Source: an uncultured Acidimicrobiaceae bacterium (GTDB lineage Bacteria; Actinomycetota; Acidimicrobiia; Acidimicrobiales; RAAP-2). Taken from it: DNA of 64,000 nucleotides. Under the pieces are notes generated by a model, which ran no database searches, was not told where the DNA came from, and saw nothing but the letters and a program-made list of their open reading frames with translations. Shown here piece by piece: positions 28,124 through 51,872 of the stretch. The position numbers were made by a program, and so were the translations under genes. Numbering within the stretch: the stretch's first letter is position 1; every line of letters starts with the position of its first letter. The stretch is from assembly GCA_963742445.1 (NCBI GenBank), contig CAVULV010000003.1, forward strand, positions 67,504-131,503, given 5' to 3'.

Positions 28124-28886
28124 TCATTCGGCCGTGAAGAGGAAGTTGTGGACATAGCGGCGCGCGTATAACACCAGGTTGGCGGCGTAGCCGTGTCGCG
28201 CGACCCGGATCGCCATGGCCCGAGCCGCCTCGCGATCGAATTCGTGCAAGGGATGCCATGCCGCGCCGATGCAGGAAGCGTCCCGCATAGCCACGTTCGG
28301 CGAGGAAGGCCACGATCTCATCGAAGTGGTCCTCCTCGGACGAGCGGTGCTCAATTTCGATCATCAAGTTCGGCTTCTGCCTCTCGAGCAAGTTCACGGC
28401 GCCCAGGAGCACGGCGAACTCGTGTCCCTCGACGTCGATCTTGATGAACCCGACGTCGCTCAGGTCGAACGAATCGAGTCGCTCCGTCTGTACGGTGACG
28501 AGTCGTCCTCCCCCATCTGGGCGCCGACCACCCTCCATCGTGGCTCGGCCCTCTGTGCCCATGCCCCCGGGAGGGATCCACAAGCTGGCCTCCCCCACGG
28601 TCTCTCCGAGGGCGACGCCGTGGAGTTGCACATTTTCCGGCATCGCCTCTCTGAGTGCGGCCACCAAGTCGGGGTTCGCCTCGAACGCGTCGACACGTGG
28701 AACCCGCTTGGCCAGCAAGTAGGTCCACGGACCCCACCACACGCCGATGTCGATGGCGCCCCGATCCGGTGGAACGAACTCGGCGAGGTGCCCGAGTTCA
28801 GGCTCAAAGTAACGATACTGATGAGCCACGAACGGGACAAAGACGCGTGGGGGCATGAACCGCGCCGCCTGCGAGGCGAGTGCCAT
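28124..28886 (-). CDS. FkbM-family methyltransferase; 1 frame break near 28255
   Basis: 'AIDIGVWWGPWTYLLA', 'VDAFEANP' and 'GFIKIDVEGHEFAVLLGA'. The start lies 3 nt after the upstream GT4 stop. Confidence 0.7.
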
Positions 28887-28889
28887 GGT

Positions 28890-30037: not shown

Positions 30038-30042
30038 GCGGC

Positions 30043-34066: not shown

Positions 34067-34091
34067 GACCGGCTGAGGCACAAGTAGACGG

Positions 34092-36856: not shown

Positions 36857-37201
36857 TCTCCCCCGTGGTTCGAGCGTACCCTCCGACGTTGGATCGTCAG
36901 TTTAGGCAGACGTGCGCAATGGAGTCGCGGAATGGAGTCGAACGTCACAGGACCCCGACCGCTGGTATCCGGTTGGACGCCAGGGCCGTCACAATCGGCG
37001 GTCGTTGGCGGTCCAAGCCGACCTGCGACAGCGACCTACAACCGCCGCCGCCAGCAGGTATTGAGGAGCCTGGCGCCGCTCGAATATGAGACCATGTTGC
37101 AGCACGGCGGACGCGGCCTGAGGAATGCGCACCAGCCGAGTCAACGAAGCGCTGGCAGACCCGACTGACCGGTCCCGGTCCGTTGCGAGGAAGTAAGCCC
37201 C

Positions 37202-38938
37202 ATGAAGGCCACAAATCTACTTCGGGAGAGCGAAACCGAGCCCTACATGGCTTTGATCGAGACTGGAGGAGGCACGAACGGCAGAAGAACCTTCCTGCCT
37301 ATTGCCACCTGGGCGTCCTGGACGATCGCCGTGCTCGGAATCGCTCTGCGGATCCGCCAGTTCGTATTCGATAGGTCACTCTGGAACGACGAGGCAGATC
37401 TCGCACTCAACGTGATCAATCGGGGGTACATGGGACTCACGAGGCAACTCGCCCTCGACCAAGGTGCACCGATTGGATTTCTTTGGTTGGAGAAGACCGC
37501 AACAGAAATCTTCGGACCAAGTGAATATGCATTGCGCTTAGTGCCACTCATCGCCGGCATCGGAAGCGTGTTGCTCTTCCGTAGCCTGACAGCCAAAGTC
37601 TTGCCGTCTCTAGCGGGAGGGGTGGCTCTCGGGTTGTTCGCAGTGTGCCCGACGCTCGTCTACTTCTCCAGCGAAGTCAAGCAATACGGCGTAGACGTTG
37701 CCGCCGTGGTGGCTATTGCTTGGTTACTCCCCCTCATGCTCGAAGGCGACCTGACCTGGCGCAAATGCCTTTCGTACGGCGGGGTTGGCGCCGTACTGGT
37801 GTGGTGTTCCTTTCCCGCAGTGTTCGTTCTGGCGGCGGAATCTTGCGTCATTGTCGTCATGCGATGGAACCGCAAGGAACTGGAGTGGCTGCCGAGATTT
37901 CTTGCCGGTTGCGGTATCTGGTTGGTGAGCTTCGGCGTCGAATACGTCGCGTCCTTGCGTGCCCTCGGCTCCAACCCGACGCTGTTGAGCTTTTGGGCCG
38001 GCGCCTATCCGCCCAAACCATATGGAGCGGGTGCCAGCCTGAGCGCGACGCTGAGTTGGTTTCCACACCAACTTCGCGGGTGGATCCAGTACCCGTGGAA
38101 CCTTTCGTTGCCGCCCGGGCACGGTTACACTTTCCTTTACCCCCTGGCGTTGATACTGCTCATCGCCGGGCTGGGTCTGCTGCTGTGGCGGCGGCGAGGC
38201 GTCGGCTTGCTGATCGTGGCTGTCGCCGGCATGGCCTCCATCGCCGGCATGATGCACGTCTACCCCTTGTCCGACCGCATGCTCCTGTTCACGGTGCCCT
38301 TCATTTGCCTGACCCTGGGTGGGATCCTGTTGGTATCGGGTCGACTTCCCATACAGATGCTGTGTATCGGCATGATCCTCGTCGTGAGTGTTCCGGAGGT
38401 TGCGACCGCCGCCGATGCGGTTCTTCGCCCCTACACCAGGGTTGAGGAACGAGCGGCCATCACCTACGTCATGCAACATAGGCAACCTGGCGACGCGATA
38501 CTGGTCGAGGGTTTGGGAGAAGCACAATTTGCTTACTACCACGAGACCATCGGAGTGAATGCAGTCGGAGCATTTGGTCTGTATGGAAGCTCTACGCCAT
38601 GCGACAACGCAGCGAATTTGGCACGGCTCACACATTGGAGTCGAGTCTGGTTGGTGTTCGGCATCGATCCCAACGCCGAACCCGATGCAACCGTTGAGTA
38701 CACGACGGCCTTTGCCAACGCGGGACACGTCATATCGGCCTACTATCCACCGGTCCACGTCTCCGACCAGAGCGACGGTGCCGGCATGGCGGCGGCCCTG
38801 CTGTTGAAGATCCGCCATGGGTCCACGCGGGGTCACCCCGTGGTTTCAGCCCCGAGTTGGCAGCCGGCTACATATGGATGCATCTCAGTCTTTCTTTCGC
38901 GACCCCAACAATGGGTGGCAGATATCAACCTCCACTGA
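37202..38938 (+). CDS. GT39/GT83-type GT-C glycosyltransferase (PMT_2/ArnT-like)
   Basis: Intact 578-aa polytopic ORF. First-loop acidic motif 'SLWNDEADLALNV' and 'FGPSEYALRLVPLIAGIGSVLLF', typical of PMT_2 proteins. Confidence 0.65.
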   Translation: MKATNLLRESETEPYMALIETGGGTNGRRTFLPIATWASWTIAVLGIALRIRQFVFDRSLWNDEADLALNVINRGYMGLTRQLALDQGAPIGFLWLEKTATEIFGPSEYALRLVPLIAGIGSVLLFRSLTAKVLPSLAGGVALGLFAVCPTLVYFSSEVKQYGVDVAAVVAIAWLLPLMLEGDLTWRKCLSYGGVGAVLVWCSFPAVFVLAAESCVIVVMRWNRKELEWLPRFLAGCGIWLVSFGVEYVASLRALGSNPTLLSFWAGAYPPKPYGAGASLSATLSWFPHQLRGWIQYPWNLSLPPGHGYTFLYPLALILLIAGLGLLLWRRRGVGLLIVAVAGMASIAGMMHVYPLSDRMLLFTVPFICLTLGGILLVSGRLPIQMLCIGMILVVSVPEVATAADAVLRPYTRVEERAAITYVMQHRQPGDAILVEGLGEAQFAYYHETIGVNAVGAFGLYGSSTPCDNAANLARLTHWSRVWLVFGIDPNAEPDATVEYTTAFANAGHVISAYYPPVHVSDQSDGAGMAAALLLKIRHGSTRGHPVVSAPSWQPATYGCISVFLSRPQQWVADINLH

Positions 38939-39040
38939 CCGGTAGTGGTGAGGTGGGTTCGTGGGCTCTACAACCCGATGCGCTGCCATTCAAGCAGTCG
39001 GGCAACCGCACACGGTCCACCCAACGGGTCAACCGCACAC

Positions 39041-39094
39041 GGTCGGGCTGCCGGGATATGAACCCGGGACCTCTTGACCCCCAGTGCGCTAATC
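39041..39094 (-). repeat. tRNA-Pro(GGG) 3'-end copy 1 (degenerate; att-like)
   Basis: 'GGTCGGGCTGCCGGGATATGAACCCGGGACCTCTTGACCCCCAGT' followed by 'GCGCTAATC'. One mismatch and a 5-nt gap relative to the tRNA at 51795-51872. It does not fold as a tRNA. Confidence 0.8.
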
Positions 39095-39181
39095 GTTGCG
39101 GCGTCCCGTGGTCGCTGGTGGCGTTACGCCCGCTCACGGAGAGTCCGCCACCGCCCCTCAGCTCACCCCCCGGGTTTGTGA

Positions 39182-39478
39182 CGTTCGCCCCTGTCGTCGC
39201 CCAGCGGCATTGCGCCGCCGTGGTCAGGTGGCTTTGCGGGACTTCTCCACGGCGTTTTCGATGCTCTCGACGCCGCCCCGCCCAATGTGGGCCGCCATTT
39301 GGTGCAGCGCGTCAAAGTGTCCGAGGGGTGGGGTCAGATCCACCACGTCTACGTCTTCTCGGGCATCAGGTACCTCGAGGCCGGTGTCGGCCTCGAGCAG
39401 GCGATCCGCACGATCGTGGCCGGTGTCATGAGCGGCCGGCGCCTTGTCGTGAGGATCGTCTGGGCCGAACTGACCTGA
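39182..39478 (+). pseudogene. Small-protein paralogue of 39864-40130, apparently 5'-truncated
   Basis: 'LLHGVFDALDAAPPNV..VKVSEGWGQIHHVYVFSG..IRTIVAGVMSGRRLVVRIVWAEL' aligns by eye with the 88-aa ORF downstream. Confidence 0.35.
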
Positions 39479-39863
39479 TCCCTCAGCCGCCAGCTGCAGG
39501 CGACGGACTGCCGCGGGGCGCCGGCATGGACGGGCGGATGGATCTCGCCCTGTCGGGGACCACTGGTTCCGCGTGTGGGATTGCACTGACCACCTCGAAG
39601 GCCAGACGGGCTGCGCCAGTTCGGAGGCACCCGCCCCACCGCAGTCCCCACCTGTGACGCCCTGCCCGTGCACTCTTGCGATCTCCGCGAGAGCGGGCTC
39701 AAATGTCGGCCGCCACCGATGACCGATCGCCACATTCAGGGGGTGAGGTGGCCGGTTCAACCCTGTGCGTTCTCTCCGGGGTTGGGCCGCGAGCGTGGGC
39801 GCCGGAAATCGGATCTACGTCCCGACAACTACATCGCGGCCATGACATTCGGCTCTGGCCTCA

Positions 39864-40130
39864 TTGACCGAGATCGACCATCTTGGCATTGTGGTGCTCT
39901 CGGACCTGTCGGACACGGTCTACGGCGCCTTGAACGACGCACTTCCCGACCCTCACTCGGTCTGGCGCGTCGAAGTGTTCGAGGGTTGGGCCAGAATCCC
40001 CTTCGTCACCGTTTACGCCGGGATGAGCCGCAGCGCGGCCGGCGCCGCACTCGCCGAGAAGATTCATGCGGTCGTCGCCGGGGTCATGGATGGGCGCCGC
40101 CATGATGTCCGGATCATCTGGGCAATCTGA
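39864..40130 (+). CDS. Hypothetical 88-aa protein (VOC-like N-terminal motif 'IDHLGIVV')
   Basis: 'MTEIDHLGIVVLSDLSDTVYGALNDAL..VWRVEVFEGWARIPFVTVYAG..HAVVAGVMDGRRHDVRIIWAI'. A paralogue lies at 39182-39478. Confidence 0.4.
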   Translation: MTEIDHLGIVVLSDLSDTVYGALNDALPDPHSVWRVEVFEGWARIPFVTVYAGMSRSAAGAALAEKIHAVVAGVMDGRRHDVRIIWAI

Positions 40131-40256
40131 CATCCGTGGGCCGCTTGAACGTGCCCCGGTCTTCTCCAGGACCTTCCGACAGTCTCCGAATTGCGACCGA
40201 AAGCTCGACGGCCTTCTCCGAGTTCTCGTACAGACCAGGCTTCCCCCAGTCACTGA

Positions 40257-40299
40257 GTCGGGCTGCCGGGATTTGACCCGGGACCTCTTGACCCCCAGT
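40257..40299 (-). repeat. tRNA-Pro(GGG) 3'-end copy 2 (att-like)
   Basis: Same 43-mer with a 1-nt deletion (ATTTGA-CCCGGG). The right-hand flank is homologous to the flank of copy 1. Confidence 0.8.
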
Positions 40300-40428
40300 G
40301 CGGTTGGCGTTGTGGCGTCCTGTGATCGTTGGTGGCGTTGCGGCTGCTCACGTCACCTCCTGCCTGCTGCCCACTCCCCCGCTGTGGCGTCCTGTGGTGC
40401 CCCGTTGTCCCGGAGTCGGGTTGCAGGG

Positions 40429-40689
40429 ATGGTCGCACTCGGAGGGTGTGTAACTTTTTCACATGGCACTGAGAGGACCGTCGAACAGAAGATCTTCGAC
40501 ATCATGCAGGTATCCCTTGCTCCGACTGCCTTGGCGCTGGAGTCAGCCGTCAACGGATTGCAGGAGGCAGTCCGGGTGGGTAGTTCCGAGATCGCCGATG
40601 ATCCGGCCGTCGAGTTGCTCCAGGCTATTGCGGGCAGCCTCGTCGGATCGGTCATACAGTTGGCCAAGGAGGTCGACGGCCTGGAGTAG
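40429..40689 (+). CDS. Small hypothetical helical protein (61-87 aa depending on start)
   Basis: Tail of ORF 40066-40689: '..MQVSLAPTALALESAVNGLQEAVRVGSSEIADDPAVELLQAIAGSLVGSVIQLAKEVDGLE'. No family recognised. Confidence 0.3.
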   Translation: MVALGGCVTFSHGTERTVEQKIFDIMQVSLAPTALALESAVNGLQEAVRVGSSEIADDPAVELLQAIAGSLVGSVIQLAKEVDGLE

Positions 40690-40701
40690 CCCCAGGCATC
40701 C

Positions 40702-41151
40702 TCACGCCAAACTCCTCCGCAGGCCCCGGCGAACCCGTCCAGTCGTCCCGCCCCACACGCCCACGGTCGATGCCACTTCGAGGGCCGAGGCGAGGCACTC
40801 CGACCTCACGGAGCACTGTTCGCAGTAGCCAAGGCCTCGTCCGGGCGGTGAGTACCGGCGCTCGGGGAAGAAGAGCTCGGGGACGGCTCGCCTGCAGGCT
40901 GCTGACCGGTGCCACGCCGGCCGGTGGACGAGCTCGGCCCGGAGGTCCTCGACGTCGGGTGTCTCCCGGGATGCCATCAGCCATTCGACGGTGCGATCTT
41001 CAGCGAGCGCCGCCTCGGCCCGGGCCGCCTCGGCCCGGGCCGCCTCGAGCTCCGTCAGCATCGGGGTCTGGTAGGGCGTGGGTTCCTCATCGAGGAGGTC
41101 GACCATCGGCCTCTGAGGGTACGGCCGGGCAGTGGCGATCGGGTGGACCAT
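40702..41151 (-). CDS. WhiB-like (Wbl) Fe-S transcription factor with an N-terminal Ala/Glu-rich extension
   Basis: 'C-x23-CEQC-x5-C' cysteine pattern, the 'GVWGG' turn and a basic tail 'GRVRRGLRR' in ORF 40702-41364. It is the only apparently intact Wbl of three. Confidence 0.65.
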   Translation of the reverse strand: MVHPIATARPYPQRPMVDLLDEEPTPYQTPMLTELEAARAEAARAEAALAEDRTVEWLMASRETPDVEDLRAELVHRPAWHRSAACRRAVPELFFPERRYSPPGRGLGYCEQCSVRSECLASALEVASTVGVWGGTTGRVRRGLRRSLA

Positions 41152-41899
41152 CGTTGTCAATTCGTTGTGCCAGTCCAGTCCGGTCGGCTCTACCTCCGCT
41201 TCAGCGATGCTGCTGTTCTGATCTTGGGTGCAGATGACCGATGTGATCAGCCCGAGTTCTACCTCGCACCGTCCACATCGCTTTGGGTCACCCGAATCGA
41301 ACGCGGCCAGCCCTGGGCAACTGAGAGCCGGACCCAATAGGCGTCCCCGTCGAAGGAGATCCATGACACCGTAGGGGGTAATCCCTCGGGTCCAGATAGC
41401 GCGAGAAGATTGGACCGGTACTTCGGGTCCATTCGATAGCCGCCAATCGGGCGGTCAACTTCGGCGATGCAAGTACCACCAGCCCGACCCCGAGCCCGCC
41501 ACGACAACTTCGCCAGTCTCTTCACGGAACCTTCTTCCGGTTCGGCACCTCTGGTTACGAGTGTACGCCTTCAGCCCTACATGTCGGGCCCGGGAAGTTC
41601 TGAAGTGGGTGTCCCCGACCGCCGGGTTAGCGGCTCCATCAGGGTCACCAGTTCTCCATGTACTTCGATTGCACAACCGTCGAACAACGACGCTAGAAGC
41701 GAGTCTGACGTCAAGAGCCTCAAGGCGCCCCGGTTTGTGGTCGATATTGGTCTAGCAACGGCGCTGCACCTTAATCGCTGGATCGAATGCAACGCCGGAC
41801 GCTCGGGAGCGATGCCGGATGGTGGTTGAGGCAACAGACCATGTCTGGCGGATCGCATTGAGCTGACGCGGATTGGTTCCGTGGGAAGGAGGGTCCAAC

Positions 41900-42430
41900 A
41901 TGCAGTTCCGCCGTCGAGTACCACGCCAACCTGCCGGCTGGGACGGGGTTTGCCAGATCGAGGGCGAGTTCGCTGCCAAGTGCCGGGTCATCGACATCTC
42001 GATGCTAGGTCTGGGAATCACTCTAGAGCACCCCTCGCCGGCCGAGCTCGCCGGACGCCGCATTTCCGTCGATGTTCCAACGGTCACCGGTGACTCGTTC
42101 AGGATCCGACTCGATGGCACAATAGCGAACGCACAGACGACTCGCGGCACAGCTGTCCGGGTTGGCATCGAGTTCGGGCAACCCCACGAAGCCGGGCTTG
42201 GCACCACCATTCTCGAGAGCACGATGAGCGATGACAAGGACAATCTTGGAGCATCACTTCTCCCGCTTCAGGAGTGCTACTCGGCAGTTGCCCGTGAACG
42301 GGGATATGGCTACAAATCGGCACAAGACACCATGCTGCTGATAACTGAGGAGATTGGCGAACTGGCGCGGCAGAATCCTGGACAACGGCAGCGACTTTCT
42401 CCTACCTCGAAAACCTGCGCAGCCTCATAA
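41900..42430 (+). CDS. PilZ-domain protein continuing in-frame into a truncated MazG-like NTP-pyrophosphohydrolase segment
   Basis: SD 'GGAAGGAGGG' lies 7 nt upstream of the ATG. PilZ motifs 'RRRVPR' (RxxxR) and 'DISMLG' (DxSxxG). C-terminal 'LQECYSAVARERGYGY..LLITEEIGELAR' is MazG-like and stops early. Confidence 0.55.
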   Translation: MQFRRRVPRQPAGWDGVCQIEGEFAAKCRVIDISMLGLGITLEHPSPAELAGRRISVDVPTVTGDSFRIRLDGTIANAQTTRGTAVRVGIEFGQPHEAGLGTTILESTMSDDKDNLGASLLPLQECYSAVARERGYGYKSAQDTMLLITEEIGELARQNPGQRQRLSPTSKTCAAS

Positions 42431-42907
42431 GGAGGTGGACTGCAGACTCGGCTCGACGTGAGATGAGGGTTCGGACACCCAGGTGGCCGGAGCGCGCTGA
42501 AGCAATGAAGAAGCCGGCGGAGCGCGGAACATCTTGGTAGATCGATGACTGGAATCCCGCGAACTCCTGGCGGCGCCATTTGTTCTTCCCGTATCCGGCG
42601 AGGCATGTCAGCGGGAACGGCTTGACCCAGATTTGCCTCTGATTTCAGAAGGCCATGCCAGATCAGCGATCCTGTTTGATTGGGCCGCGAGGAACCTCTA
42701 GGTAATCTACTTCCACTGAGCAGTCGACCGACGTACGCACCGCCCCGCTGGACAGCGATGCAGCACGAGCCCTGCTTGAGCCATCGACCTGCCCCAGATC
42801 GCCGGGCTGGGGTGTCACTCTGCGGCGCAATTGCCTCGGGCTGCGTCCTTGTGAGCACGTCGGCGAGGCGACAACACGGCCTCTCATGGGCGACGTAGTT
42901 TGCTTCA

Positions 42908-43546
42908 GTGCCGCGGGCCAAGCTTGGGGTCATCGCGCTGGTGTGTCTGTACGCAACCGCGATTTTGGCTTGGATCGTTGCGCATGGCCGTTCGCCGTAC
43001 GGGTTTGAGGATCCGGCTATCAAATGGCTCGGGCCTCCTACTGCCATCAGAGGCTGGGCCGACCTCGCTGAACTCTTGGCCGCCCCGACCATCATTGCCG
43101 TCCTCGTCGTCACCTTCGGCGTCGGCCTGGCGAGGCGGGCGTCTGTTCGTGTCGTTTATTACGCTGCGCTCGCGGCATGGACTCTGCTCATTTGCGATCA
43201 CGGGATCAAGGCGCTGGTCCAAAGGACCTATTACGGCGAGCTCACCTTCCCCTCCGGCCACGTCACGGCCGTCAGCGCGACGGCGCTTGCCATGTGGCTG
43301 GCTCTCGGCCCACTGCTCGGCAGGCAACAACGCTACGTGACTCTCGTCCTTGGCGGGGCCTGGGTCCTCCTTATGTCGCTGGCAGTGGTCGGCGCGCACT
43401 GGCACACCCCACTCGACGCCATCGGGTCCGTGTTGCTGTCTGTTGGCGTCGTCACTGCAGGTGCGGCTGTCTTCGAACCCGTTGGGACTCCAGGACCCTG
43501 CGAGGCTATGGGGCGCGATCTATTTGGGGCACAGGGCGGCAAATAG
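42908..43546 (+). CDS. PAP2-superfamily membrane phosphatase
   Basis: Intact 212-aa ORF with 5-6 TM segments. Motifs 'KALVQR', 'PSGH' and 'HWHTPLD'. Confidence 0.7.
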   Translation: MPRAKLGVIALVCLYATAILAWIVAHGRSPYGFEDPAIKWLGPPTAIRGWADLAELLAAPTIIAVLVVTFGVGLARRASVRVVYYAALAAWTLLICDHGIKALVQRTYYGELTFPSGHVTAVSATALAMWLALGPLLGRQQRYVTLVLGGAWVLLMSLAVVGAHWHTPLDAIGSVLLSVGVVTAGAAVFEPVGTPGPCEAMGRDLFGAQGGK

Positions 43547-43640
43547 CTGTCCGATGTCGCACCGAGTTCCTCCCAAAAGAAGTGCCGCGATCGGCGCTTC
43601 CGTTCCCGGACGCAGTAGCCCCCTGAACTGCTGATTCTTC

Positions 43641-43683
43641 GTCGGGCTGCCGGGATTTGAACCCGGGACCTCTTGACCCCCAG
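43641..43683 (-). repeat. tRNA-Pro(GGG) 3'-end copy 3 (att-like)
   Basis: 43/43 match to tRNA positions 51797-51839. Confidence 0.85.
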
Positions 43684-43883
43684 GCGGGTCTGGGTCGTTG
43701 GGTCCTGCTTGGTGTCAGCGGGTTGTGCCGGGTCGACCCAGGTTTCCCCGTTCGTTAGGTTGGGTGGTGTTTCGTTAGGTTGGGTGGTGTTGGGGGCAGT
43801 TTGGGGACACTTTGCGAAGTTGCGTTGACAAATCCGTTGACACCGCCGATCTGGGCACCGAGGTGGAGGTGTGTCAGCGGTAG

Positions 43884-44192
43884 TCAGAAGGGCGCCTCGC
43901 CGACACCTTGGAGGTGCCCGCTCGCATCGGTGCGCACACCTTGAACGCGGCGACCGTTGTTCACCAGTCGCAGCTCGAACGTTGTGAGCTGGAGGGTTCG
44001 CAGGTCCTCTTCGTTGAGGCCGTCGATGACCCCACCCCACGAGACCCGCCGCTCGATTGTGCCGCCGCGCCCGTCAGGCCTCTCGACCTTTTGCATCTCC
44101 GCGTCCCGGTTGGTGAGCTGCACGTGCACATCGAACCGCCTGCCACCGACCACGATCGTTGCAGCGCCGTTGTAGCTCGGCTCACTCATCAC
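43884..44192 (-). CDS. Hypothetical 102-aa protein (DUF4873-like pattern, tentative)
   Basis: 'MMSEPSYNGAATIVVGGRRFDVHVQLTNRD..SWGGVIDG..'. An identical copy lies at 47991-48299. Confidence 0.5.
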   Translation of the reverse strand: MMSEPSYNGAATIVVGGRRFDVHVQLTNRDAEMQKVERPDGRGGTIERRVSWGGVIDGLNEEDLRTLQLTTFELRLVNNGRRVQGVRTDASGHLQGVGEAPF

Positions 44193-44254
44193 CGTCTGCT
44201 CCTTCGCTCACGGCTGTTACGAAGGCACGGTAGGCCAGACGAGCACCCCTCACA

Positions 44255-44409
44255 TCACGCCACCCCACGCCTCAGGCCCCGGCGAACCCGTCCCGTCGCC
44301 CCTCCCCCACACCCCACGGTCGACGCCACCTCGAGGGCTGAGGCGAGGCACTCCGCCTTCACCGGACACCCGGGGCAGTAGGCCAGGGCCTCGACGTATC
44401 TAAAAATCA
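44255..44409 (-). pseudogene. WhiB-like gene remnant (C-terminal ~45 aa) truncated by att copy 4
   Basis: 'ALAYCPGCPVKAECLASALEVASTVGCGGGATGRVRRGLRR'. The upstream part is replaced by the tRNA 3'-end repeat. Confidence 0.6.
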
Positions 44410-44452
44410 GTCGGGCTGCCGGGATTTGAACCCGGGAGCTCTTGACCCCCAG
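44410..44452 (-). repeat. tRNA-Pro(GGG) 3'-end copy 4 (att-like)
   Basis: 43-mer with one mismatch (44438 G for C). Confidence 0.85.
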
Positions 44453-44746
44453 GCACTTCTGAGTCCATTTTCGGGTCAATCGCTGATCTGCGAGCTTATG
44501 CAAACTCTCTGTTCGGAGCTCTTATGGTCACACCCAACAGGCGGCTGGCGGTCCAGAGGCTCTATGGTCTTTCGATGAGCGATGCCCCTGGAGCGCTGCG
44601 GACATGTCCGGCGTGCGGTGCGTGAGTCGGACCGTCGTCCTCAGTTCTCGAGGGGCGGAGTTGCTCGTCGTCGACGGGCACGATGCGGTTGTTCTGGTGC
44701 CTCGTCGGTAAACCCACGTCGGAGCGCTGTCGGACGGCCTGATCGA

Positions 44747-47506
44747 ATGAGGCGAGCCCTGATCATTGTGGTGGGTGCGCTGGTCGCAGCCGGACTTCCT
44801 GTCTTCGCTGTTACGGCACATTCGCAACCGGCGGCCGCCGAGACGTCGAGCCCCTACGCGTTGGTCTCGGTGTCCGGGAGCCCCCTCGGTAACGTCAGCG
44901 CAGCCTCCCCCTACGGCTTGAGCCCGGCGTTCTCCCCATCGACCACCGATTACGTTCTCCGCTGCAACGACGGGAGGAACCAGGTTGTGCTCACGCTGAC
45001 CGGGAACGGTGGTCCCGTCTCCGTGGGAACAAATCAGCAGAGCTCGCATGACTCCGGAGCGTCCGTTAACGTGACACTCACCGTGGTCCCGAACCAGGCG
45101 ATTGTGGTGTATGCGCCGAACCCCTCGAACCCCGGGACCACCCCAGACCAGTACTGGATCCGCTGTCTGCCCCCCAATTTCCCCGCGATACAGGTGAACA
45201 AGGCCGGACCCTCGTCCCCCGGCTGGACCCCGGGCTACTACTTCACGGGGACCTTTCCGTTGGGCCAACAACCCTATGCCATGGTGCTCGACGGGAACGG
45301 CATCCCCGTGTGGTTCCAGGGCATCGCGTCGAACCTCGGCGCTGCCTTCAACGTGGAGCCCCTCCCCAACAACACCATTGCCTGGTCGCCCAGTCTCGGC
45401 CCCGGGATTGGTGCGGGGGACAACGGGAATGCGTACACCGGATTCGACCTGGCGACCCAGAGCACCATCGACCCGCTCCCTGCCGCGGTGTCGCCGACAG
45501 ACGAACACGAACTCTGGCCACTGCCCAACGGGGACCGGCTGATGATCTCGTCGCCCGTCGTCTCGAGTGTCGACCTGTCGACCCTCGGGGACGGCATGCT
45601 CTCCTCCGGAAGCACAACTCCTTCGTCTGCGGCGGACGGCAACGCCGTCGACTGCGTGGTGCAGGAGGTGAACCCGGACAACCAGGCCGTCTGGTCCTGG
45701 GACGCCTCGCAACACATCGGGGTCGGCGAGGTCAACACAGTGAGCAATCCCGGCCCTCCCTGGATCCTCGACACCCTGAACGGAAGCCCGGCGGCCGATA
45801 TCTACCACTGCAACTCCGTGTCCATGGACGAGGACACCGCGAGTCCATACCACGGGGACGTCCTGGTCTCCATGCGGCACCTCAACGCTGTCTTCCTCAT
45901 CGACCCGTCCTCGGGCGACGTGATCTGGAAGCTGGGGGGGACACCGCTCACGCCGGGCGATCCCGAGGAGGGACAGGGGTCGCCGGCCCAGTACCTCGCC
46001 ATCACGGGTGACGGCGAGTCCGGTATCTGCGGTCAGCACGACGCGCGGTTCGTCGCGACGCCCGACCCGGCGGTCGAGGACGTGAGCGTGTTCGACGACC
46101 ACTCCAAATGCCTCGGCCCCGCCCGCGGGATTGAGTTCGCCGTGGACACCGCCGCAGGCACCGCCACTCCCGACTACCAGTACGCGCAGCCCCAGGGGCA
46201 ATCAGTGTCGGCCATGGGCAGCTTTCGCCGGATGCCCGACGCCAATAATGACATCGGTTCCGGCAGCAGCCTGACCGACTGGGGCCTCACCAGCGGAACG
46301 AACCTGTCCGGCTTCACCGAAGTCGACAGCGGCGGCAACATCCTGGTCGACGTCACCTTCCCGTCCCTCGAGTACCTGTACCGGGCGATCAAGGTCGATG
46401 CGAGTCAAGTCAATCTGCCCTTGCTCAGGCAGACAGCCGGTTGGACGGGTGCGACGATCCCTCCTCCGCCTTCAATGCCGCAGGTGACGGGCGTGAGCCC
46501 TTCGAGCGGGCTCACGGAAGGTGGGACCTCGGTAACCATCACCGGATCGGGATTCGTCGGCGCCAGCTCCGTGACGTTCGGAGGTCACCAAGCGGCGTTT
46601 GGCGTCACGGCGACAGGCACCATCGTGGCCACCGCCCCTGGGGGCGTGGGAGGCGCCGTCGACGTGGTCGTGACCGCCCCCGGTGGGACGTCTGCGCCGC
46701 GCGCTGCAGACCAGTTCACCTACGCCGACCAGTTCACCTACGTTGCGCCGTCACCACCCGAAATCGTGGGCACGGCCCCCACCCCTGACGGCGGGGGCTA
46801 CTGGCTGGTGGCCTCCGACGGGCGGGTCTTCCCCTTCGGCGACGCCGGGTTCTACGGATCGGCCAGCAATCAGGCGCTCAACGCACCCATCGTCGGGATG
46901 GTGCCCACCCCCAGCGGCAACGGCTACTGGCTGGTGGCCTCCGACGGTGGGATCTTCAACTACGGGGACGCCAGGTTCTTCGGCTCACGCGGCGGTCAGC
47001 CGCTCAACAAGCCGGTGGTCGGGATCGCCGCCTCGACCGACGGTGGGGGCTACTGGCTGGTGGCCTCCGACGGTGGGATCTTCAACTACGGGGACGCCAG
47101 GTTCTTCGGCTCACGCGGCGGTCAGCCGCTCAACAAGCCGGTGGTCGGGATCGCCGCCTCGACCGACGGTGGGGGCTACTGGCTGGTGGCCTCCGACGGT
47201 GGGATCTTCAACTACGGGGACGCCAGGTTCTTCGGCTCACGCGGCGGTCAGCCGCTCAACAAGCCGGTGGTCGGGATCGCCGCCTCGACCGACGGTGGGG
47301 GCTACTGGCTGGTGGCCTCCGACGGTGGGATCTTCAACTACGGGGACGCCAGGTTCTTCGGCTCACGCGGCGGTCAGCCGCTCAACAAGCCGGTGGTCGG
47401 GATCGCCGCCTCGACCGACGGTGGGGGCTACTGGCTGGTGGCCTCCGACGGTGGGATCTTCAACTACGGCAGTTCCGACTTCGAGGGGTCGGTCATGGGC
47501 GGCTGA
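44747..47506 (+). CDS. Secreted protein: arylsulfotransferase (ASST)-like beta-propeller region, one IPT/TIG domain and six '[24 protein letters not shown]' repeats
   Basis: Intact ORF. Signal peptide 'MRRALIIVVGALVAAGLPVFAVTAHS'. ASST-like 'DIYHCNSVSMD..GDVLVSMRHLNAVFLIDPSSGDVIWKLGG..GQHDARF'. IPT 'VTGVSPSSGLTEGGTSVTITGSGF'. Repeats at the C-terminus. Confidence 0.75.
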   Translation: MRRALIIVVGALVAAGLPVFAVTAHSQPAAAETSSPYALVSVSGSPLGNVSAASPYGLSPAFSPSTTDYVLRCNDGRNQVVLTLTGNGGPVSVGTNQQSSHDSGASVNVTLTVVPNQAIVVYAPNPSNPGTTPDQYWIRCLPPNFPAIQVNKAGPSSPGWTPGYYFTGTFPLGQQPYAMVLDGNGIPVWFQGIASNLGAAFNVEPLPNNTIAWSPSLGPGIGAGDNGNAYTGFDLATQSTIDPLPAAVSPTDEHELWPLPNGDRLMISSPVVSSVDLSTLGDGMLSSGSTTPSSAADGNAVDCVVQEVNPDNQAVWSWDASQHIGVGEVNTVSNPGPPWILDTLNGSPAADIYHCNSVSMDEDTASPYHGDVLVSMRHLNAVFLIDPSSGDVIWKLGGTPLTPGDPEEGQGSPAQYLAITGDGESGICGQHDARFVATPDPAVEDVSVFDDHSKCLGPARGIEFAVDTAAGTATPDYQYAQPQGQSVSAMGSFRRMPDANNDIGSGSSLTDWGLTSGTNLSGFTEVDSGGNILVDVTFPSLEYLYRAIKVDASQVNLPLLRQTAGWTGATIPPPPSMPQVTGVSPSSGLTEGGTSVTITGSGFVGASSVTFGGHQAAFGVTATGTIVATAPGGVGGAVDVVVTAPGGTSAPRAADQFTYADQFTYVAPSPPEIVGTAPTPDGGGYWLVASDGRVFPFGDAGFYGSASNQALNAPIVGMVPTPSGNGYWLVASDGGIFNYGDARFFGSRGGQPLNKPVVGIAASTDGGGYWLVASDGGIFNYGDARFFGSRGGQPLNKPVVGIAASTDGGGYWLVASDGGIFNYGDARFFGSRGGQPLNKPVVGIAASTDGGGYWLVASDGGIFNYGDARFFGSRGGQPLNKPVVGIAASTDGGGYWLVASDGGIFNYGSSDFEGSVMGG
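46922..47469 (+). repeat. 126-bp in-frame tandem repeat, about 4.3 nucleotide-identical copies (42 aa each)
   Basis: The unit 'GGCTACTGGCTGGTGGCCTCCGACGGTGGGATCTTCAACTACGG..' starts at 46922, 47048, 47174, 47300 and 47426. I saw no differences between units. Confidence 0.9.
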
Positions 47507-47599
47507 CACAAGGCGTACGCCGTCCGCAAACGTGCCCGGCGAGTTGCTCAACCGGCTCTTCGGATTTCAGCGGGGAGCTGACCCGCTGAGCCGCTCAAC

Positions 47600-47765
47600 C
47601 GGCAGCGCTGTTGGACCAACCTCGAGTTGGGCGGGCCATCGCCGGGTACATCGAGCACTTCTGCGACCCGGCCCGGTCACAGCGCCCTCGGGCTACCTGA
47701 CCCGAATGATTTCGAAGACCTACACTCACCCCAACCGGAGGCCACCAGTCGGGGTCAAGCGCATT
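47600..47765 (+). pseudogene. IS3-family transposase (OrfB) 3'-terminal remnant, frameshifted
   Basis: Composite of three frames: 'GRAIAGYIEHFCDPAR / HSALG / YLT..NDFE', matching the conserved OrfB tail 'YIExFYNxxRxHSALGYxxPxxFE'. It abuts att copy 5. Confidence 0.55.
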
Positions 47766-47810
47766 TGGTCGGGCTGCCGGGATTTGAACCCGGGACCTCT
47801 TGACCCCCAG
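47766..47810 (-). repeat. tRNA-Pro(GGG) 3'-end copy 5 (att-like)
   Basis: 45/45 match to 51795-51839, including the encoded CCA. Confidence 0.9.
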
Positions 47811-47990
47811 GCGGGTCTGGGTCGTTGGGTCCTGCTTGGTGTCAGCGGGTTGTGCCAGGTCGACCCAGGTTTCCCCGTTCGTTAGGTTGGGTGGTGTTGG
47901 GGGCAGTTTGGGGACACTTTGCGAAGTTGCGTTGACAAATCCGTTGACACCGCCGATCTGGGCACCGAGGTGGAGGTGTGTCAGCGGTAG

Positions 47991-48299
47991 TCAGAAGGGC
48001 GCCTCGCCGACACCTTGGAGGTGCCCGCTCGCATCGGTGCGCACACCTTGAACGCGGCGACCGTTGTTCACCAGTCGCAGCTCGAACGTTGTGAGCTGGA
48101 GGGTTCGCAGGTCCTCTTCGTTGAGGCCGTCGATGACCCCACCCCACGAGACCCGCCGCTCGATTGTGCCGCCGCGCCCGTCAGGCCTCTCGACCTTTTG
48201 CATCTCCGCGTCCCGGTTGGTGAGCTGCACGTGCACATCGAACCGCCTGCCACCGACCACGATCGTTGCAGCGCCGTTGTAGCTCGGCTCACTCATCAC
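47991..48299 (-). CDS. Hypothetical 102-aa protein, identical copy of 43884-44192
   Basis: The translated ORF is identical in the track. Confidence 0.5.
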   Translation of the reverse strand: MMSEPSYNGAATIVVGGRRFDVHVQLTNRDAEMQKVERPDGRGGTIERRVSWGGVIDGLNEEDLRTLQLTTFELRLVNNGRRVQGVRTDASGHLQGVGEAPF

Positions 48300-48361
48300 C
48301 GTCTGCTCCTTCGCTCACGGCTGTTACGAAGGCACGGTAGGCCAGACGAGCACCCCTCACA

Positions 48362-48699
48362 TCACGCCACCCCACGCCTCAGGCCCCGGCGAACCCGTCC
48401 CGTCGCCCCTCCCCCACACCCCACGGTCGACGCCACCTCGAGGGCTGAGGCGAGGCACTGCGGCCGCACCGAGCAGCTCTCGCAGTAGGCCAGCGCCTGC
48501 TCAGGTGCCAAGTGGGCCGGTTCACAAGGTCGGCCAGGAGTAGCTCCACGTCGGGCGCGTCCTCCGACGCCATTAGCGAGTCGAGCGCGACCTGGCGTGC
48601 CAGCACGCCGGCCCGGGCCTCCTCGAGCTCCGTCAATGTCGGAGGCTGGTCGGGCGTGGGCTCCTCGTCGAGATTCTCCAGCCACTCCAGGACGGTCAC
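48362..48699 (-). pseudogene. WhiB-like gene, frameshifted and lacking the first Cys region
   Basis: 'MTVLEWLENLDEEPTPDQPPTLTELEEARA..LVNRPTWH' (ORF 48379-48699), then in another frame 'PEQALAYCESCSVRPQCLASALEVASTVGCGGG..'. The segment equivalent to 'AACRRAVPELFFPE' in the 40702 copy is absent. Confidence 0.6.
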
Positions 48700-49013
48700 C
48701 GGCTACAACGGTACGGCCGGCATTGACGCGCGGGCAGACCCGACCCCGGCAACGTATCAGGAGGCCTCGGTGCGGGTCACTATCTCAGGTCACCGAGACC
48801 GCCTGCGCAAAGCCGGTCAGGGGGGTGAAGGTGGCCGGCTCAACCCTGTGTTCTCTACCGGGGTTGGGCCGCGCCGGGGGAGCTGTGGCGGTCTACCGTC
48901 ACGCCAATGGATCGGATGCCCCAGCCCGGCGACCCCTAGCCCAGGTCCTTCGTCGCCGTACGGCGTGCACTACTACAGGTCCGCAGTCTTGGAAGGTCAC
49001 GCCGCAGAGGTAG

Positions 49014-49349
49014 CTATGCAGCGCGCCGGAAATCCCTCTTCTCGACCCCCCGGCGCGTGGAACTCGACCCCTCGGGCACGGTCACAGATCGGGCGCCGGC
49101 GGCGACCGCCGCACGGTAGGTGCGCTCAAGCTGAGCCCTGCGGCCTTCCCAGGAGCGTCGGCACCTACGACAAACGATCCGAAGCCAATCGGCGGCGATC
49201 ACGGGATACCCCCAGCGGCACCGGCTCCAACCCAACGCGACTAGGTCGACATCCCCATTCCCGAGTGAACCCGCCAAGGCAAGGCGGGCACCGCAGGAGC
49301 AGCGCACCGTTCGAGGGTCTCGGTATCTGGACCGCCTCCATCGTGCCAT
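49014..49349 (-). CDS. Hypothetical Cys/Arg-rich small protein (weak call)
   Basis: 'MARWRRSRYRDPRTVRCSCGARL..WLRIVCRRCRRSWEGRRAQLERTY' within ORF 49014-49487. No RBS and no family recognised. Confidence 0.2.
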   Translation of the reverse strand: MARWRRSRYRDPRTVRCSCGARLALAGSLGNGDVDLVALGWSRCRWGYPVIAADWLRIVCRRCRRSWEGRRAQLERTYRAAVAAGARSVTVPEGSSSTRRGVEKRDFRRAA

Positions 49350-49376
49350 CGAAACAACATTAGTGTAGTTTCCTCC

Positions 49377-49619
49377 GTGGATAGCGGCATGACGATGCCC
49401 CGCCCCCGTGACGTGTCCCCCGGCTTCATGGCCAAGCCGGGCCGCTGTTGGCGAATGGTCTACAGCCACCAGCTGCAAGCCACGCACTGCACCGAGGTGC
49501 CGTCATGGACGGGCCGGTGGTTCCCGCCGAGAGGTGACCGGTGGTTCCGCGTGTGGGCTTGCGCCGACCACCCCGAGGGACTGACCGGCATGCGGCAGTT
49601 TGGCGGCGTCCGTCGCTAA
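49377..49619 (+). CDS. Hypothetical 80-aa Cys/Trp-rich protein
   Basis: '..GRCWRMVYSHQLQATHCTEVPSWTGRWFPPRGDRWFRVWACADHPEGLTG..'. High third-position G+C supports coding. No family recognised. Confidence 0.35.
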   Translation: MDSGMTMPRPRDVSPGFMAKPGRCWRMVYSHQLQATHCTEVPSWTGRWFPPRGDRWFRVWACADHPEGLTGMRQFGGVRR

Positions 49620-49922
49620 GGATCTGCCGTCCTGGCGCCTATCCCCGTACGAATCAGGCACTTTCGGGCTATCAGTCTCCGATGAGGTTATTGGCGCACC
49701 GTTCCGTCCCCTCTCGTCCCACAGCTCTTTCAGCTCAGTGGGTTCGCGAGGATCTGATAGGAACCCGAACTGGTTGACAGAGCAGGTAGGCTTTGTCGAC
49801 GCCTCATCCTCCTCTTGGTCGGCGACTTCAACCTCGAAGATGGCAGCATCGAGGACCGCGACCGCAGTGTGAGCGGCATCGCATTGTGTGTGCAGCATCT
49901 CGATCTTCTTCGCCGCGTTCAC
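49503..49922 (-). CDS. Hypothetical acidic protein; the 3' part overlaps 49377-49619 and is probably not all coding
   Basis: 'MNAAKKIEMLHTQCDAAHTAVAVLDAAIFEVEVADQEEDE..'. The GTG start lies directly beside the CTGACAG repeat array. Confidence 0.3.
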   Translation of the reverse strand: MNAAKKIEMLHTQCDAAHTAVAVLDAAIFEVEVADQEEDEASTKPTCSVNQFGFLSDPREPTELKELWDERGRNGAPITSSETDSPKVPDSYGDRRQDGRSLATDAAKLPHAGQSLGVVGASPHAEPPVTSRREPPARP

Positions 49923-49990
49923 TGACAGCGTTCACTGACAGCCACTGACAGAGCCACTGACAGACCTGTCAGACCTGTCAGACCTGTCAG
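49920..49990. repeat. Inverted iteron array: 4 x CACTGACAG followed by 3 x ACCTGTCAG
   Basis: CACTGACAG at 49920, 49933, 49943 and 49955. ACCTGTCAG at 49964, 49973 and 49982 (contiguous). CTGACAG and CTGTCAG are reverse complements. Confidence 0.85.
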
Positions 49991-49995
49991 ACCGT

Positions 49996-51703
49996 TGTCA
50001 AGACCCGGTACCCGCTTGACGTTTTGACTCCGGTACCTGCTTGACACCCAAACCCTCAGGCCACATTGGCCTTACGGGGCCGACCCTGGGGAGTAGCGAA
50101 GGCGCCGTGCTCCTTGGAGCGGTCGTGATGGATGGCGTGGACCCTGAGGACCTTGCCCTTGGCCGAGATCTGGACCGAGCCGGCCACGATGGCCACTTCG
50201 ACGACCTGGCGGGCCCAGCTGCGTCCGACCCGATAGCCGGTCCCGGCGAAGGAGACCGAGCCGCCCTGGTCCACCCGGCGGGTGACGGTCATGCCTGAGG
50301 TGGGTGGTCGGGAGCGCCCCGAGCGTGGGGCACGTTGGGGCCGAGATCCTTTGTCCGCTCGGCGTCGCTCGGCGTGGGTGGCGACGAGGACGCCGGCATG
50401 GAGGATCTCGACGAGCCCTGCGCGCACCACGACCTCGACGGATTCCCCCGCGAAGGTCGCCCCCACCCGATAACGGAAACTCCCGAGGCCGATCGAGCCG
50501 CGCTGGTCGACCCAGCGGTTCACGCCGGGTGGTCGTTCACTCAGAGGAACCTCCTCGATGACTTCTGGCATCTCGGGGTCGGCGGGTCGGGCTGGGGCCA
50601 GTGCGAAGCGCTCGGCGGGCGGGCGATCACCCAATGACTGGTGCGGACGCTTCGTGTTGTACTCGCTCACCCACTCGTCGAGGGCGCGCTGGAGCGCCTC
50701 GATGCTCGGATGCACCCAGTCGTGGTCGACCAAGAAGTCCGAGCGCATGGTCTTGTGGAATCTCTCGACCTTGCCTGTCGTGGTCGGCGAATACGGGGCG
50801 GTGAGCAAATGGCGGATCCCGTTGTTGGTGCAGATCCGGTCGAAGAGCACCGGTCCGGGCCCTTGGCCGAAGCGAGCAGTGAAGACCTTGCCATTGTCGG
50901 TGAGGATCTGGTCGGGCACGCCATGGGTGCGCAGCGCCCACTGGAGGGCCTCGCACACCGGTCTGGCTGTCGCCCGGGCAACCACCCGAGCGCAGACGCA
51001 GAACCGTGAGTGGTCATCGACACCGGTGACGACTTTGACCTCGGTGCCGTCGGCAAGATGGAAGCGGCCGACGATGTCCATCTGCCACAGCTCCATGGAG
51101 CGAGACCGCTCCCATCGCTTGTAGTCAGAGCGGGCGCGCTTGCGTGGGGTGGGCTCGAGCAGGTGGTGACGAACCAAGGTGCGATAGATGGACGAGCGTC
51201 CGGGCACCGGAGTGAAGCCGTCTTTGGCGAGTTCGGTGCGGATGGAGCGTGGTCCCCAGCGCGGGTGCGCCCGGCGCAGCTCGACCACCCTGGCCTCGAT
51301 GACCGGGGCCATCTGGTGCGGACAGCGCTCGGGCCTCGAGCTCTTGTCGGCCAGGGCGGCCATGCCGCCGTTGGCATAGCGGCGCAGCCACGTGTGGACG
51401 CTCTGGCGGCTCACCCCGTTGCGCTGGGCCACGTCGGTCACGCTCATCCCGTCGAGGACGTCGATCACCGCTCGATAGCGCTGTTCCACCAGCTTGAGCT
51501 CCACCAACACGGTCGGCCTCCTTCGCATCCGTCGACAGCTGCGTCAACAGCGAAGAAGGTGGCAACCGCCACGCGGTGGACCCTCCAGGCACGAAGTGTC
51601 AAGCAGGTACCGGAGCCAGTGTCGCCCAGGTACCGGAGCCGCGTCCGAAAGTGTCAGGCAGGAACCGGAGCCACGCCGTCAAGCATGAACCGGAATTCAC
51701 ACA
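49996..51703 (-). mobile_element. IS481-like insertion sequence (1,708 bp) with TGT-ended imperfect ~25-bp IRs and a 14-bp flanking direct repeat
   Basis: IRL 'TGTCAAGACCCGGTACCCGCTTGAC' (49996-50020). IRR reverse complement 'TGTGTGAATTCCGGTTCATGCTTGAC' (51678-51703). Flanking 'ACCTGTCAGACCGT' at 49982-49995 and 51704-51717. Inner exact inverted repeat GGTACCTGCTTGACAC (50032-50047 / 51597-51612). Confidence 0.75.
50056..51528 (-). CDS. DDE transposase (HTH, rve integrase-core, Mu-transposase-C-like tail)
   Basis: Intact 490-aa ORF: 'WQMDIV..GVDDHSRF' (D), 'ILTDNGKVFT' (D), 'PYSPTTTGKVERFH' (E) and N-terminal HTH 'MSVTDVAQRNGVSRQSVHTWLRRY'. Confidence 0.85.
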   Translation of the reverse strand: MRRRPTVLVELKLVEQRYRAVIDVLDGMSVTDVAQRNGVSRQSVHTWLRRYANGGMAALADKSSRPERCPHQMAPVIEARVVELRRAHPRWGPRSIRTELAKDGFTPVPGRSSIYRTLVRHHLLEPTPRKRARSDYKRWERSRSMELWQMDIVGRFHLADGTEVKVVTGVDDHSRFCVCARVVARATARPVCEALQWALRTHGVPDQILTDNGKVFTARFGQGPGPVLFDRICTNNGIRHLLTAPYSPTTTGKVERFHKTMRSDFLVDHDWVHPSIEALQRALDEWVSEYNTKRPHQSLGDRPPAERFALAPARPADPEMPEVIEEVPLSERPPGVNRWVDQRGSIGLGSFRYRVGATFAGESVEVVVRAGLVEILHAGVLVATHAERRRADKGSRPQRAPRSGRSRPPTSGMTVTRRVDQGGSVSFAGTGYRVGRSWARQVVEVAIVAGSVQISAKGKVLRVHAIHHDRSKEHGAFATPQGRPRKANVA

Positions 51704-51794
51704 ACCTGTCAGACCGTCCGTTGACAAACGGTTGACATGGAACATGGCCGGGCGACGCCCACCGCAATACGCGATCGCCTGACCAGCACCTTCA

Positions 51795-51872
51795 TGGTCG
51801 GGCTGCCGGGATTTGAACCCGGGACCTCTTGACCCCCAGTCAAGCGCGCTAACCAAGCTGCGCCACAGCCCG
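51795..51872 (-). tRNA. tRNA-Pro (anticodon GGG), CCA encoded
   Basis: Reverse complement: CGGGCTG-TG-GCGC-AGCTTGGTTA-GCGC-G-CTTGA-CTGGGGG-TCAAG-AGGTC-CCGGG-TTCAAAT-CCCGG-CAGCCCG-A-CCA. This gives a full cloverleaf with anticodon loop C-U-GGG-G-G. Confidence 0.9.

Follow-up and report, generated by a model that had tools for sequence, protein, structure and literature searches.

Elements that move by means of tyrosine integrases classically use as their attachment (att) site the stretch from the anticodon loop to the 3' end of a tRNA gene, and pSAM2 targets a tRNA-Pro gene with an att of 58 bp. A site of this kind lies in the window described here, a 64-kb stretch of contig CAVULV010000003.1 from an uncultured Acidimicrobiaceae bacterium, in which six direct copies of the 3' part of tRNA-Pro(GGG), numbered att copies 1–6, delimit five segments, A–E, and a complete insertion sequence (IS) of the IS481 family stands next to the tRNA gene. 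The closest described systems are the actinomycete integrative and conjugative elements (AICEs), whose tyrosine integrases were reported by Ghinet et al. to target tRNA 3' ends, with tRNA remnants also able to serve as sites (PMC3218068). Tandem AICEs, a three-repeat structure and AICE remnants are documented as well, together with alternative excision products of Fean6303 and Fean5518/Fean5534 in Frankia (PMC3218068). Cis-mobilizable elements (CIMEs) keep attL and attR, have lost the integration and transfer genes, and are stacked by site-specific accretion (PMC5704250). The eukaryotic elements targeting tRNA genes have been reviewed (PMC5911963, PMC6101501). Seen against this background, the array in the window is a hotspot of an ordinary kind and of unusual length, with its six att copies, while the targeting of the IS matters more and is worth following up.

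The only tRNA called in the window by ARAGORN is tRNA-Pro(GGG), encoded on the minus strand; Rfam finds the same gene (65.9 bits), and no other copy of the repeat is called a tRNA. The repeat comprises the 3' 43–45 nt of this tRNA, from the anticodon loop (CTGGGGG) to the discriminator and, as the tRNA lies on the minus strand, its copies are all situated downstream of the tRNA 3' end, in the same orientation. A search with the 45-mer allowing up to 3 mismatches gave five plus-strand matches against 0.00 expected, and BLAST added a sixth copy, with a 1-nt deletion; no further copy exists elsewhere in the 64 kb. A repeat of the repetitive extragenic palindrome (REP) or miniature inverted-repeat transposable element (MITE) type, scattered and in both orientations, is not what is found, all copies being confined to positions 39041–51839 and sharing one orientation. 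These results confirm the copies, coordinates and segment sizes proposed in an earlier reading made from the sequence alone (hereafter the sequence-only reading); the homology that it had followed into the D-arm at copy 1 comes down to a marginal 7-nt match, GCGCTAA. Each att copy is followed downstream by 15–30 bp of sequence similar to a tRNA trailer and resembling the native trailers of different relatives. The ca. 30 bp to the left of copy 1 match the native trailers in three related loci (L013, L077, and L036; L-numbers are labels for loci compared with the window), and for this reason copy 1 is probably the original chromosomal 3' half.

The state of the same site in relatives was compared in 80 loci retrieved with Der from GTDB genomes, nearly all of them metagenome-assembled genomes (MAGs) of uncultured Acidimicrobiaceae. 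The best Der match is 95% identical, and tRNA-Pro(GGG) is located downstream of der in about 60 of the 80. The site is polymorphic for presence and absence: it may be empty, occupied by one small element without an integrase, or occupied by an integrase with a pSAM2-type RepSA, i.e., an AICE. Within the fetched flank most loci have a single copy of tRNA-Pro(GGG); in L005, L011, and L012 an additional 3' copy delimits an element, of 2.95, 3.16, and 1.35 kb, respectively. Complete att-to-att elements of 1.3–3 kb lacking an integrase are found in other species (L005, L008, and L012), the one in L005 being only 74–81% identical to the window. Tyrosine integrases were identified with Pfam beside tRNA-Pro in L041 (410 aa), L015, and L052; the L041 integrase gene has its stop codon within the 3' end of the tRNA, and the gene after it encodes a RepSA of the pSAM2 type (407 bits), a combination which is the signature of an AICE. 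Decayed integrases were detected by tblastn at the site in L032, L009, L017, and L027. The integration hotspot with presence/absence polymorphism postulated in the sequence-only reading is therefore borne out, and a uniform array common to all relatives, which would have spoken against it, is the opposite of what the loci contain.

A displaced 5' half of the tRNA, broken exactly after CTGGGGG, occurs in L008, L015, L017, L018, and L021 (Table 1), which indicates that the anticodon loop is a recombination crossover point across the family. At the chromosomal position these five loci have only the tRNA-Pro 5' half, and in L008 the complete tRNA follows 2.1 kb further on; the chromosomal 5' halves point to a second class of elements, which carry the 5' and not the 3' part of the tRNA. 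L079 contains a pseudo-tRNA (18787–18861) whose anticodon loop (GGGG) is 8 nt long; the intact tRNA-Pro (20423–20498) follows 1.6 kb downstream of it, and a lipase-family gene lies between the two.

The search for an integrase comprised a Pfam scan of 20 ORFs (open reading frames) of at least 94 aa and of the remaining six-frame stop-to-stop fragments of at least 40 aa, concatenated, as well as tblastn of four integrases and the L041 RepSA against the whole window. The domains found in the array are WhiB, PilZ, PAP2, arylsulfotransferase/TIG, and one DDE transposase, and neither the ORFs nor the six-frame fragments gave a Phage_integrase, Resolvase, RepSA, or FtsK domain in Pfam. The best integrase match by tblastn in the 64 kb had an E-value of 0.17, and RepSA gave no match. 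The absence of a tyrosine or serine recombinase, noted earlier for the array, is thus confirmed there and extends to the entire 64 kb. Of the hallmarks of an AICE, a recombinase beside the att site is missing from the window and present in the relatives L041, L015, and L052, while a RepSA-type initiator and an FtsK/SpoIIIE-like Tra are likewise missing from the window according to tblastn and Pfam, so the link to AICEs rests on the att site and the relatives and not on gene content.

The repeats are probably best explained by serial site-specific integration at one attachment site, an explanation favoured by their exact boundaries, by the polymorphism of the site, and by the integrases in relatives. 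The att site would begin in the anticodon loop of tRNA-Pro(GGG), reach the tRNA 3' end, and take in roughly 17 bp of the trailer. The incoming elements would be integrative elements of actinomycete type (pSAM2-like AICEs and relatives), each bringing its own tRNA 3' half. Every integration would restore the tRNA and displace the previous 3' half outward, which again would make copy 1 the original chromosomal half. Segment E would probably be the latest arrival if integration took place at the functional tRNA, and any att copy could have been a target. The cognate integrase would have worked in trans or been lost, and homologous and illegitimate recombination would later have reshaped the array. 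In a separate event, the IS entered the tRNA-proximal arm of segment E. The repeats and their exact limits on the tRNA, the lack of an integrase, the integrases and RepSA found at this site in relatives, and the anatomy and targeting pattern of the IS are observed directly, whereas we infer the order of arrival, the mobilisation in trans, and the way in which the IS recognises its target. All five segments are flanked by att copies and contain no recombination or transfer domain, in agreement with the definition of a CIME (PMC5704250), and on the best reading of their sequences they would be CIME-like remnants or mini-elements devoid of integrase, replication, and transfer genes.

Self-BLAST and flank alignment distinguish three types of left arms in the segments: copies 1 and 2 are followed by an alpha arm, copies 3 and 5 by a beta arm, and copy 4 by a unique arm, in segment D, resembling the arm of L162. 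The left ends of segments C (43641–44355) and E (47768–48462) share a block of 715 bp, ca. 99.8% identical (1 SNP and a 20-bp indel), which starts precisely at the att copy and stops within a WhiB gene; past this block segment C continues with a different WhiB allele and then breaks off 17 bp short of copy 4. Both arms of E contain a paired GTTGACA motif, which recurs in the C arm and in the related element of L005; 7 of the 10 occurrences of the motif in the window fall within the array.

Table 1. Features of the array in the 64-kb window, and tRNA 5' halves in related loci (the latter in the coordinates of the respective locus)
Feature	Position	Strand	Remarks
att copy 1 (outermost)	39041/2-39084	+	1 mismatch
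att copy 2	40257-40299	+	1-nt deletion in the T-loop
att copy 3	43641-43683	+	43/43
att copy 4	44410-44452	+	1 mismatch in 43 nt; truncated WhiB coding region on the left
att copy 5	47766-47810	+	45/45 against the tRNA 3' part
Intact tRNA-Pro(GGG)	51795-51872	-	ARAGORN and Rfam; 3' part (51797-51839) is att copy 6
Segment A	39085-40256		1.17 kb; alpha-type left arm; two paralogous small ORFs (39182-39478, 39846-40130)
Segment A, Cys/His-rich ORF	~39480-39630		frameshifted copy
Segment B	40300-43640		3.34 kb; alpha-type left arm
Segment B, WhiB-like gene	40702-41364	-
Segment B, PilZ ORF	41873-42430
Segment B, PAP2 ORF	42908-43546
Segment C	43684-44409		0.73 kb; also contains a WhiB C-terminal fragment
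Segment C, ORF102	43884-44192	-
Segment D	44453-47767		3.32 kb
Segment D, single cargo gene	44582-47506	+	arylsulfotransferase-like with IPT/TIG domains
Segment D, tandem repeats in cargo gene	46763-47469		126-bp unit
Segment E	47811-51796		3.99 kb; 2.26 kb without the IS and its duplication
Segment E, ORF102	47991-48299	-
Segment E, WhiB-like ORF	48379-48699	-
Segment E, Cys/His-rich ORF	49269-49619	+
Segment E, CTGWCAG repeats	49918-49994
Segment E, paired GTTGACA	47931/47943 and 51720/51731		in both arms
IS481-family IS	49995-51704	-	complete, 1,710 bp; NCBIfam, Pfam, repeats
Transposase	50056-51528	-	490 aa; NF033577, 290.8 bits (cutoff 224)
Region of the tRNA-Pro 5' half, L008	15037-17272
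tRNA-Pro 5' half, L015	14920-14959
tRNA-Pro 5' half, L017	14623-14662
tRNA-Pro 5' half, L018	17807-17844
tRNA-Pro 5' half, L021	16671-16712

The genes common to the segments are those for WhiB-like regulators, a 102-aa protein (ORF102), and a Cys/His-rich protein, of which only WhiB has a family assignment. ORF102, the 94- and 98-aa paralogues, and the Cys/His-rich ORF have no match in PHROGs, Pfam, or NCBIfam, the PHROGs scan recognised only WhiB regulators, and no relatives of ORF102 or of the transposase were found in IMG/VR. The segments do not have the integrase, replication module, and hijacking or packaging genes that define phage satellites, be they phage-inducible chromosomal islands (PICI), P4-like elements, or PICI-like elements (PLE). 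A supposed MazG fragment of the sequence-only reading reaches no Pfam threshold. The Cys/His-rich proteins form a small, lineage-restricted family with the motif PGxCW...THC...WTGRW...RVWxCxxH (29 clusters in a set of 5.8 billion proteins), whose members in the window, L005, L008, L020, and L176–L179 lie in variable regions with and without tRNAs. The ORF was considered as a marker of a mobile module and rejected, since its homologues occur on four long contigs without a tRNA, att copy, or integrase within 8 kb. The repeats in the cargo gene of segment D amount to ca. 5.6 copies of the 126-bp unit, 88–92% identical, and encode a repeated module of the 974-aa product; repeats similar to these are present near tRNA-Pro in L017 and L034–L036. 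In segment E ca. 8 CTGACAG/CTGTCAG units abut the IS, whose target duplication belongs to the run, and in L081 and L073 the IS is bordered by short iterons of a similar kind.

Several facts weigh against serial integration of AICE-like elements. No fragment of an integrase, RepSA, or Tra is detectable in any frame; the small genes shared by the segments are not mobility genes, WhiB being a regulator, and the Cys/His-rich ORF has homologues in four loci with neither tRNA nor integrase within 8 kb. Segments A–D are mosaics, which makes the equation of one segment with one integration an idealisation, and the window probably comes from a MAG, the array being known from the assembly alone. As to what the segments now are, the evidence speaks for site-specific events of recent date as well as for secondary recombination: the C/E duplicate and the arm motifs argue for the former, and the mosaic junctions, truncated genes, and missing helper for decay.

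That the beta-type elements at least, namely segment E, the left end of C, and the element of L005, would be non-autonomous mini-elements with functional arms, mobilised in trans by an integrase encoded elsewhere, is a plausible view, although we hold it tentatively; it corresponds to the satellites suggested in the sequence-only reading. It is consistent with the two near-identical left ends in one array which begin exactly at the att site, with the paired GTTGACA conserved in both arms and in L005, and with the complete integrase-less elements of L005, L008, and L012; the exact boundary of the C/E duplicate and the conserved arm motifs hint that beta-type segments may still be moved in trans. 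On the other hand, a cognate integrase was not identified, no high-identity copy was found in another genome (L005 being only 74–81% identical), segment C is truncated, and the Cys/His-rich ORF is not specific to such elements.

Somewhat more doubtful is that the array is purely a graveyard, i.e., that each segment was once an autonomous AICE or prophage, that its int, xis, rep, and tra were lost through deletions, internal or att x att, and that no movement has followed. The decayed integrases at this tRNA in L032, L009, and L027 show that decay does occur here, the truncated WhiB genes, the frameshifted Cys/His-rich ORF, and the mosaic junction at the end of C fit it, and exactly this route is described in the literature on CIMEs (PMC5704250). 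However, it requires that all five segments have lost every trace of int and rep yet kept both att sites; moreover, the integrase abuts the core in L041-type elements, yet no fragment of it is left in the array, and decay alone does not explain the 99.8% identical C/E duplicate.

Amplification independent of an integrase, either by unequal homologous exchange between the 43–60-bp repeats or as an assembly artefact concatenating alternative alleles, is improbable as the origin of the array, though either may have contributed to it. Unequal exchange could yield near-identical C and E blocks, and the source is apparently a long-read metagenome assembly, with the close relatives all being MAGs, but content varies from segment to segment and there are at least three arm types, so that the first copies would still require integration; homologous att junctions are present in the independent assemblies L005, L012, L162, and L163, and an overlap of 43 bp is too short to mislead a long-read assembler. 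That the repeats were made by the IS481-family transposase, the only recombinase present and one adjoining the tRNA, can practically be dismissed, because the IS has its own inverted repeats and a 14–15-bp target duplication, in the window as in 15 other insertions, no IS-end motifs lie near copies 1–5, and such an element cannot have produced att copies of 43–45 bp placed 0.7–4 kb apart.

Serial integration remains the preferred account of the repeats. Integrase-less tandem elements flanked by att copies are less unusual than the sequence-only reading held, as CIMEs and their accretion are described (PMC5704250) and the like is reported for actinomycete AICEs (PMC3218068). The hotspot, its polymorphism, and the lack of an integrase thus stand from that interpretation, while the unusualness and the notion of a recombinase-free array do not, a DDE transposase being present.

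This transposase belongs to what had been taken for the tail of an IS3 element and is in fact a complete IS481-family IS, with terminal inverted repeats starting with TGT, several subterminal CCGGTWCC..GCTTGAC sites, and a 14-bp target duplication, ACCTGTCAGACCGT, at 49981–49994 and 51705–51718. Target duplications are 14–15 bp long in 15 related insertions, and up to 18 bp where the end base is ambiguous. The transposase contains the Pfam domains rve, HTH, and Mu-transpos_C_2 and continues past the IS481 core for ca. 180 residues, among which are two Mu-transposase-C-like stretches; to judge by its sequence, it is a full-length and apparently active recombinase. In L073, L079, and L011 the same IS (90–93% amino-acid identity) is located 93–95 bp past the acceptor end of tRNA-Pro and co-oriented with it, while the spacer between the two is not conserved and L073 has a 15-bp duplication of its own. 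Owing to this conserved place beside the tRNA, the DDE protein was considered as the integrase of the element, a candidate rejected on account of the sharp IS ends, the target duplications, and the unconserved 93-bp spacer.

The position of the IS is not peculiar to tRNA-Pro. A 100% identical transposase (P0001) is encoded at a second locus, 93 bp behind a 3' fragment of tRNA-Met and with a 14-bp duplication, and a metagenome scan with the transposase gave 80 further loci with 56–91% identity. The ISs of this clade measure ca. 1.7 kb and encode one transposase of ca. 485 aa. A T-arm is found at a fixed position in ca. 40 of the 47 distinct upstream sequences with at least 135 nt available, and its distance to the IS is 117–121 nt at 28 of 38 unique sites. 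ARAGORN places tRNAs of 12 or more isotypes on the same strand (Pro, Met, Ala, Lys, Ile, Gly, Val, Phe, Thr, Glu, Arg, and others); most of them end 93–98 nt from the IS at their 3' side, and the IS is always co-oriented with the tRNA (the window, L073, L079, L011, L081, and L082–L175). Bare tRNA 3' fragments suffice as targets, as seen with tRNA-Gly, tRNA-Met, and the tRNA-Pro att copies in L162 and L163. A trailer motif of approximately AAAGnnCAGGTCAGrGGC starts 10–15 nt past the 3' ends of numerous different tRNA genes of these Actinomycetota, often opening a hairpin, in L073, L081, L088, L093, L098, L102, L130, L137, and others, as well as at 51775–51794 in the window. The frequent trailer motif CAGGTCAG was rejected as the anchor of the IS, the standard deviation of its distance being 6.7 against 6.0 for the T-arm, with 12 of 38 sites lacking the motif.

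The transposase would thus appear to recognise the 3' part of the tRNA in DNA and to insert the IS ca. 95 bp, or about nine helical turns, downstream. A literature search found no bacterial precedent for such targeting by an IS, only the eukaryotic tRNA-targeting elements and Tn7-like systems, a negative that does not in itself prove novelty. The IS insertion point falls at the integrase 3' end in an L041-type element and splits the tRNA-proximal arm in segment E, and insertions at these places would lock the elements in position. Taken together, these data allow a possible, still provisional reading: an undescribed clade of the IS481 family in which a single transposase, its C-terminus longer by ca. 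180 residues that form two tandem Mu-transposase-C-like repeats, would read any tRNA gene by its 3' part and insert the IS ca. 95 bp downstream, always in the same orientation. The IS would in this way immobilise tRNA-integrated elements as well and so help to build integrase-less arrays, and the 2.3-kb beta-type segment would be a minimal integrase-less element still mobilised in trans. If true, this would suggest a mechanism by which ISs inactivate tRNA-integrated elements and would make it possible to test directly by what means a DDE transposase measures off about nine helical turns from its recognition site. Should the targeting be confirmed and be new, it would offer a one-gene bacterial system for position-specific 'safe-harbour' insertion beside tRNA genes.

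The locus is flanked on the right by core genes, namely an esterase gene, der, a DUF512 radical-SAM gene, and cmk, and on the left by glycosyltransferase genes, one of them AftD-like. Directly outside att copy 1 lies a block of lower G+C content (ca. 28000–39040; 0.60–0.69 versus 0.72–0.78 further left) encoding an AftD-like arabinofuranosyltransferase, a GT2, and a PMT_2 glycosyltransferase; the block could represent another island, though no att copy marks its far end. The closest relative, L001 (14809–21588), is 94% identical in nucleotide sequence across der and the esterase gene, and no tRNA-Pro or att copy lies within 6.8 kb past the latter. The tail of L001 reaches the homologue of window positions ca. 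29.1–30.0 kb, so the whole stretch of 30–52 kb may be absent or replaced there. Comparison of L001 with the window by tblastx gave only noise in this high-GC DNA, and an exact-protein look-up of three window proteins gave no match, probably because start codons differed.

Compared with known systems, the array resembles the pSAM2-type AICEs in the identity block running from the anticodon loop to the tRNA 3' end, in the relative L041 with its tyrosine integrase ending in the tRNA and followed by RepSA, and in tandem insertion, remnants, and integration into tRNA remnants (PMC3218068). It differs in that its segments are without int, xis, repSA, and tra, are only 0.7–4 kb in size, and have a host in the Acidimicrobiia and not in the Actinomycetes proper; pSAM2-like AICE biology outside the classical actinomycetes is a useful but expected finding. 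With the CIMEs and accretion of ICESt1/ICESt3 in Streptococcus thermophilus it shares retained att sites, lost genes, and stacking (PMC5704250), a likeness known here from sequence alone, whereas the five units stacked in the window are not accompanied by an autonomous element within the array. Several direct att repeats at a single tRNA are also known from Frankia, in Fean6303 and the tandem Fean5518/Fean5534 AICEs (PMC3218068), but those arrays still encode integrases and have 2–3 repeats versus 6 here. The array is thus a clear example of accretion and decay at a tRNA attachment site in the Acidimicrobiaceae, a poorly studied soil lineage. The IS, for its part, is comparable to Tn7/attTn7, Ty3, TRE5-A, and DGLT-A in its fixed distance and orientation beside a conserved essential gene which is left undisrupted. 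Unlike these position-specific transposons, it is a one-gene bacterial element of the IS481 family with neither a TnsD/TniQ-like partner nor Pol III machinery, and unlike the tRNA-targeting ones it inserts ca. 95 bp downstream of the tRNA, not upstream. If the proposed targeting is true, the IS would represent a one-protein bacterial counterpart of Tn7/attTn7 or Ty3/TRE targeting.

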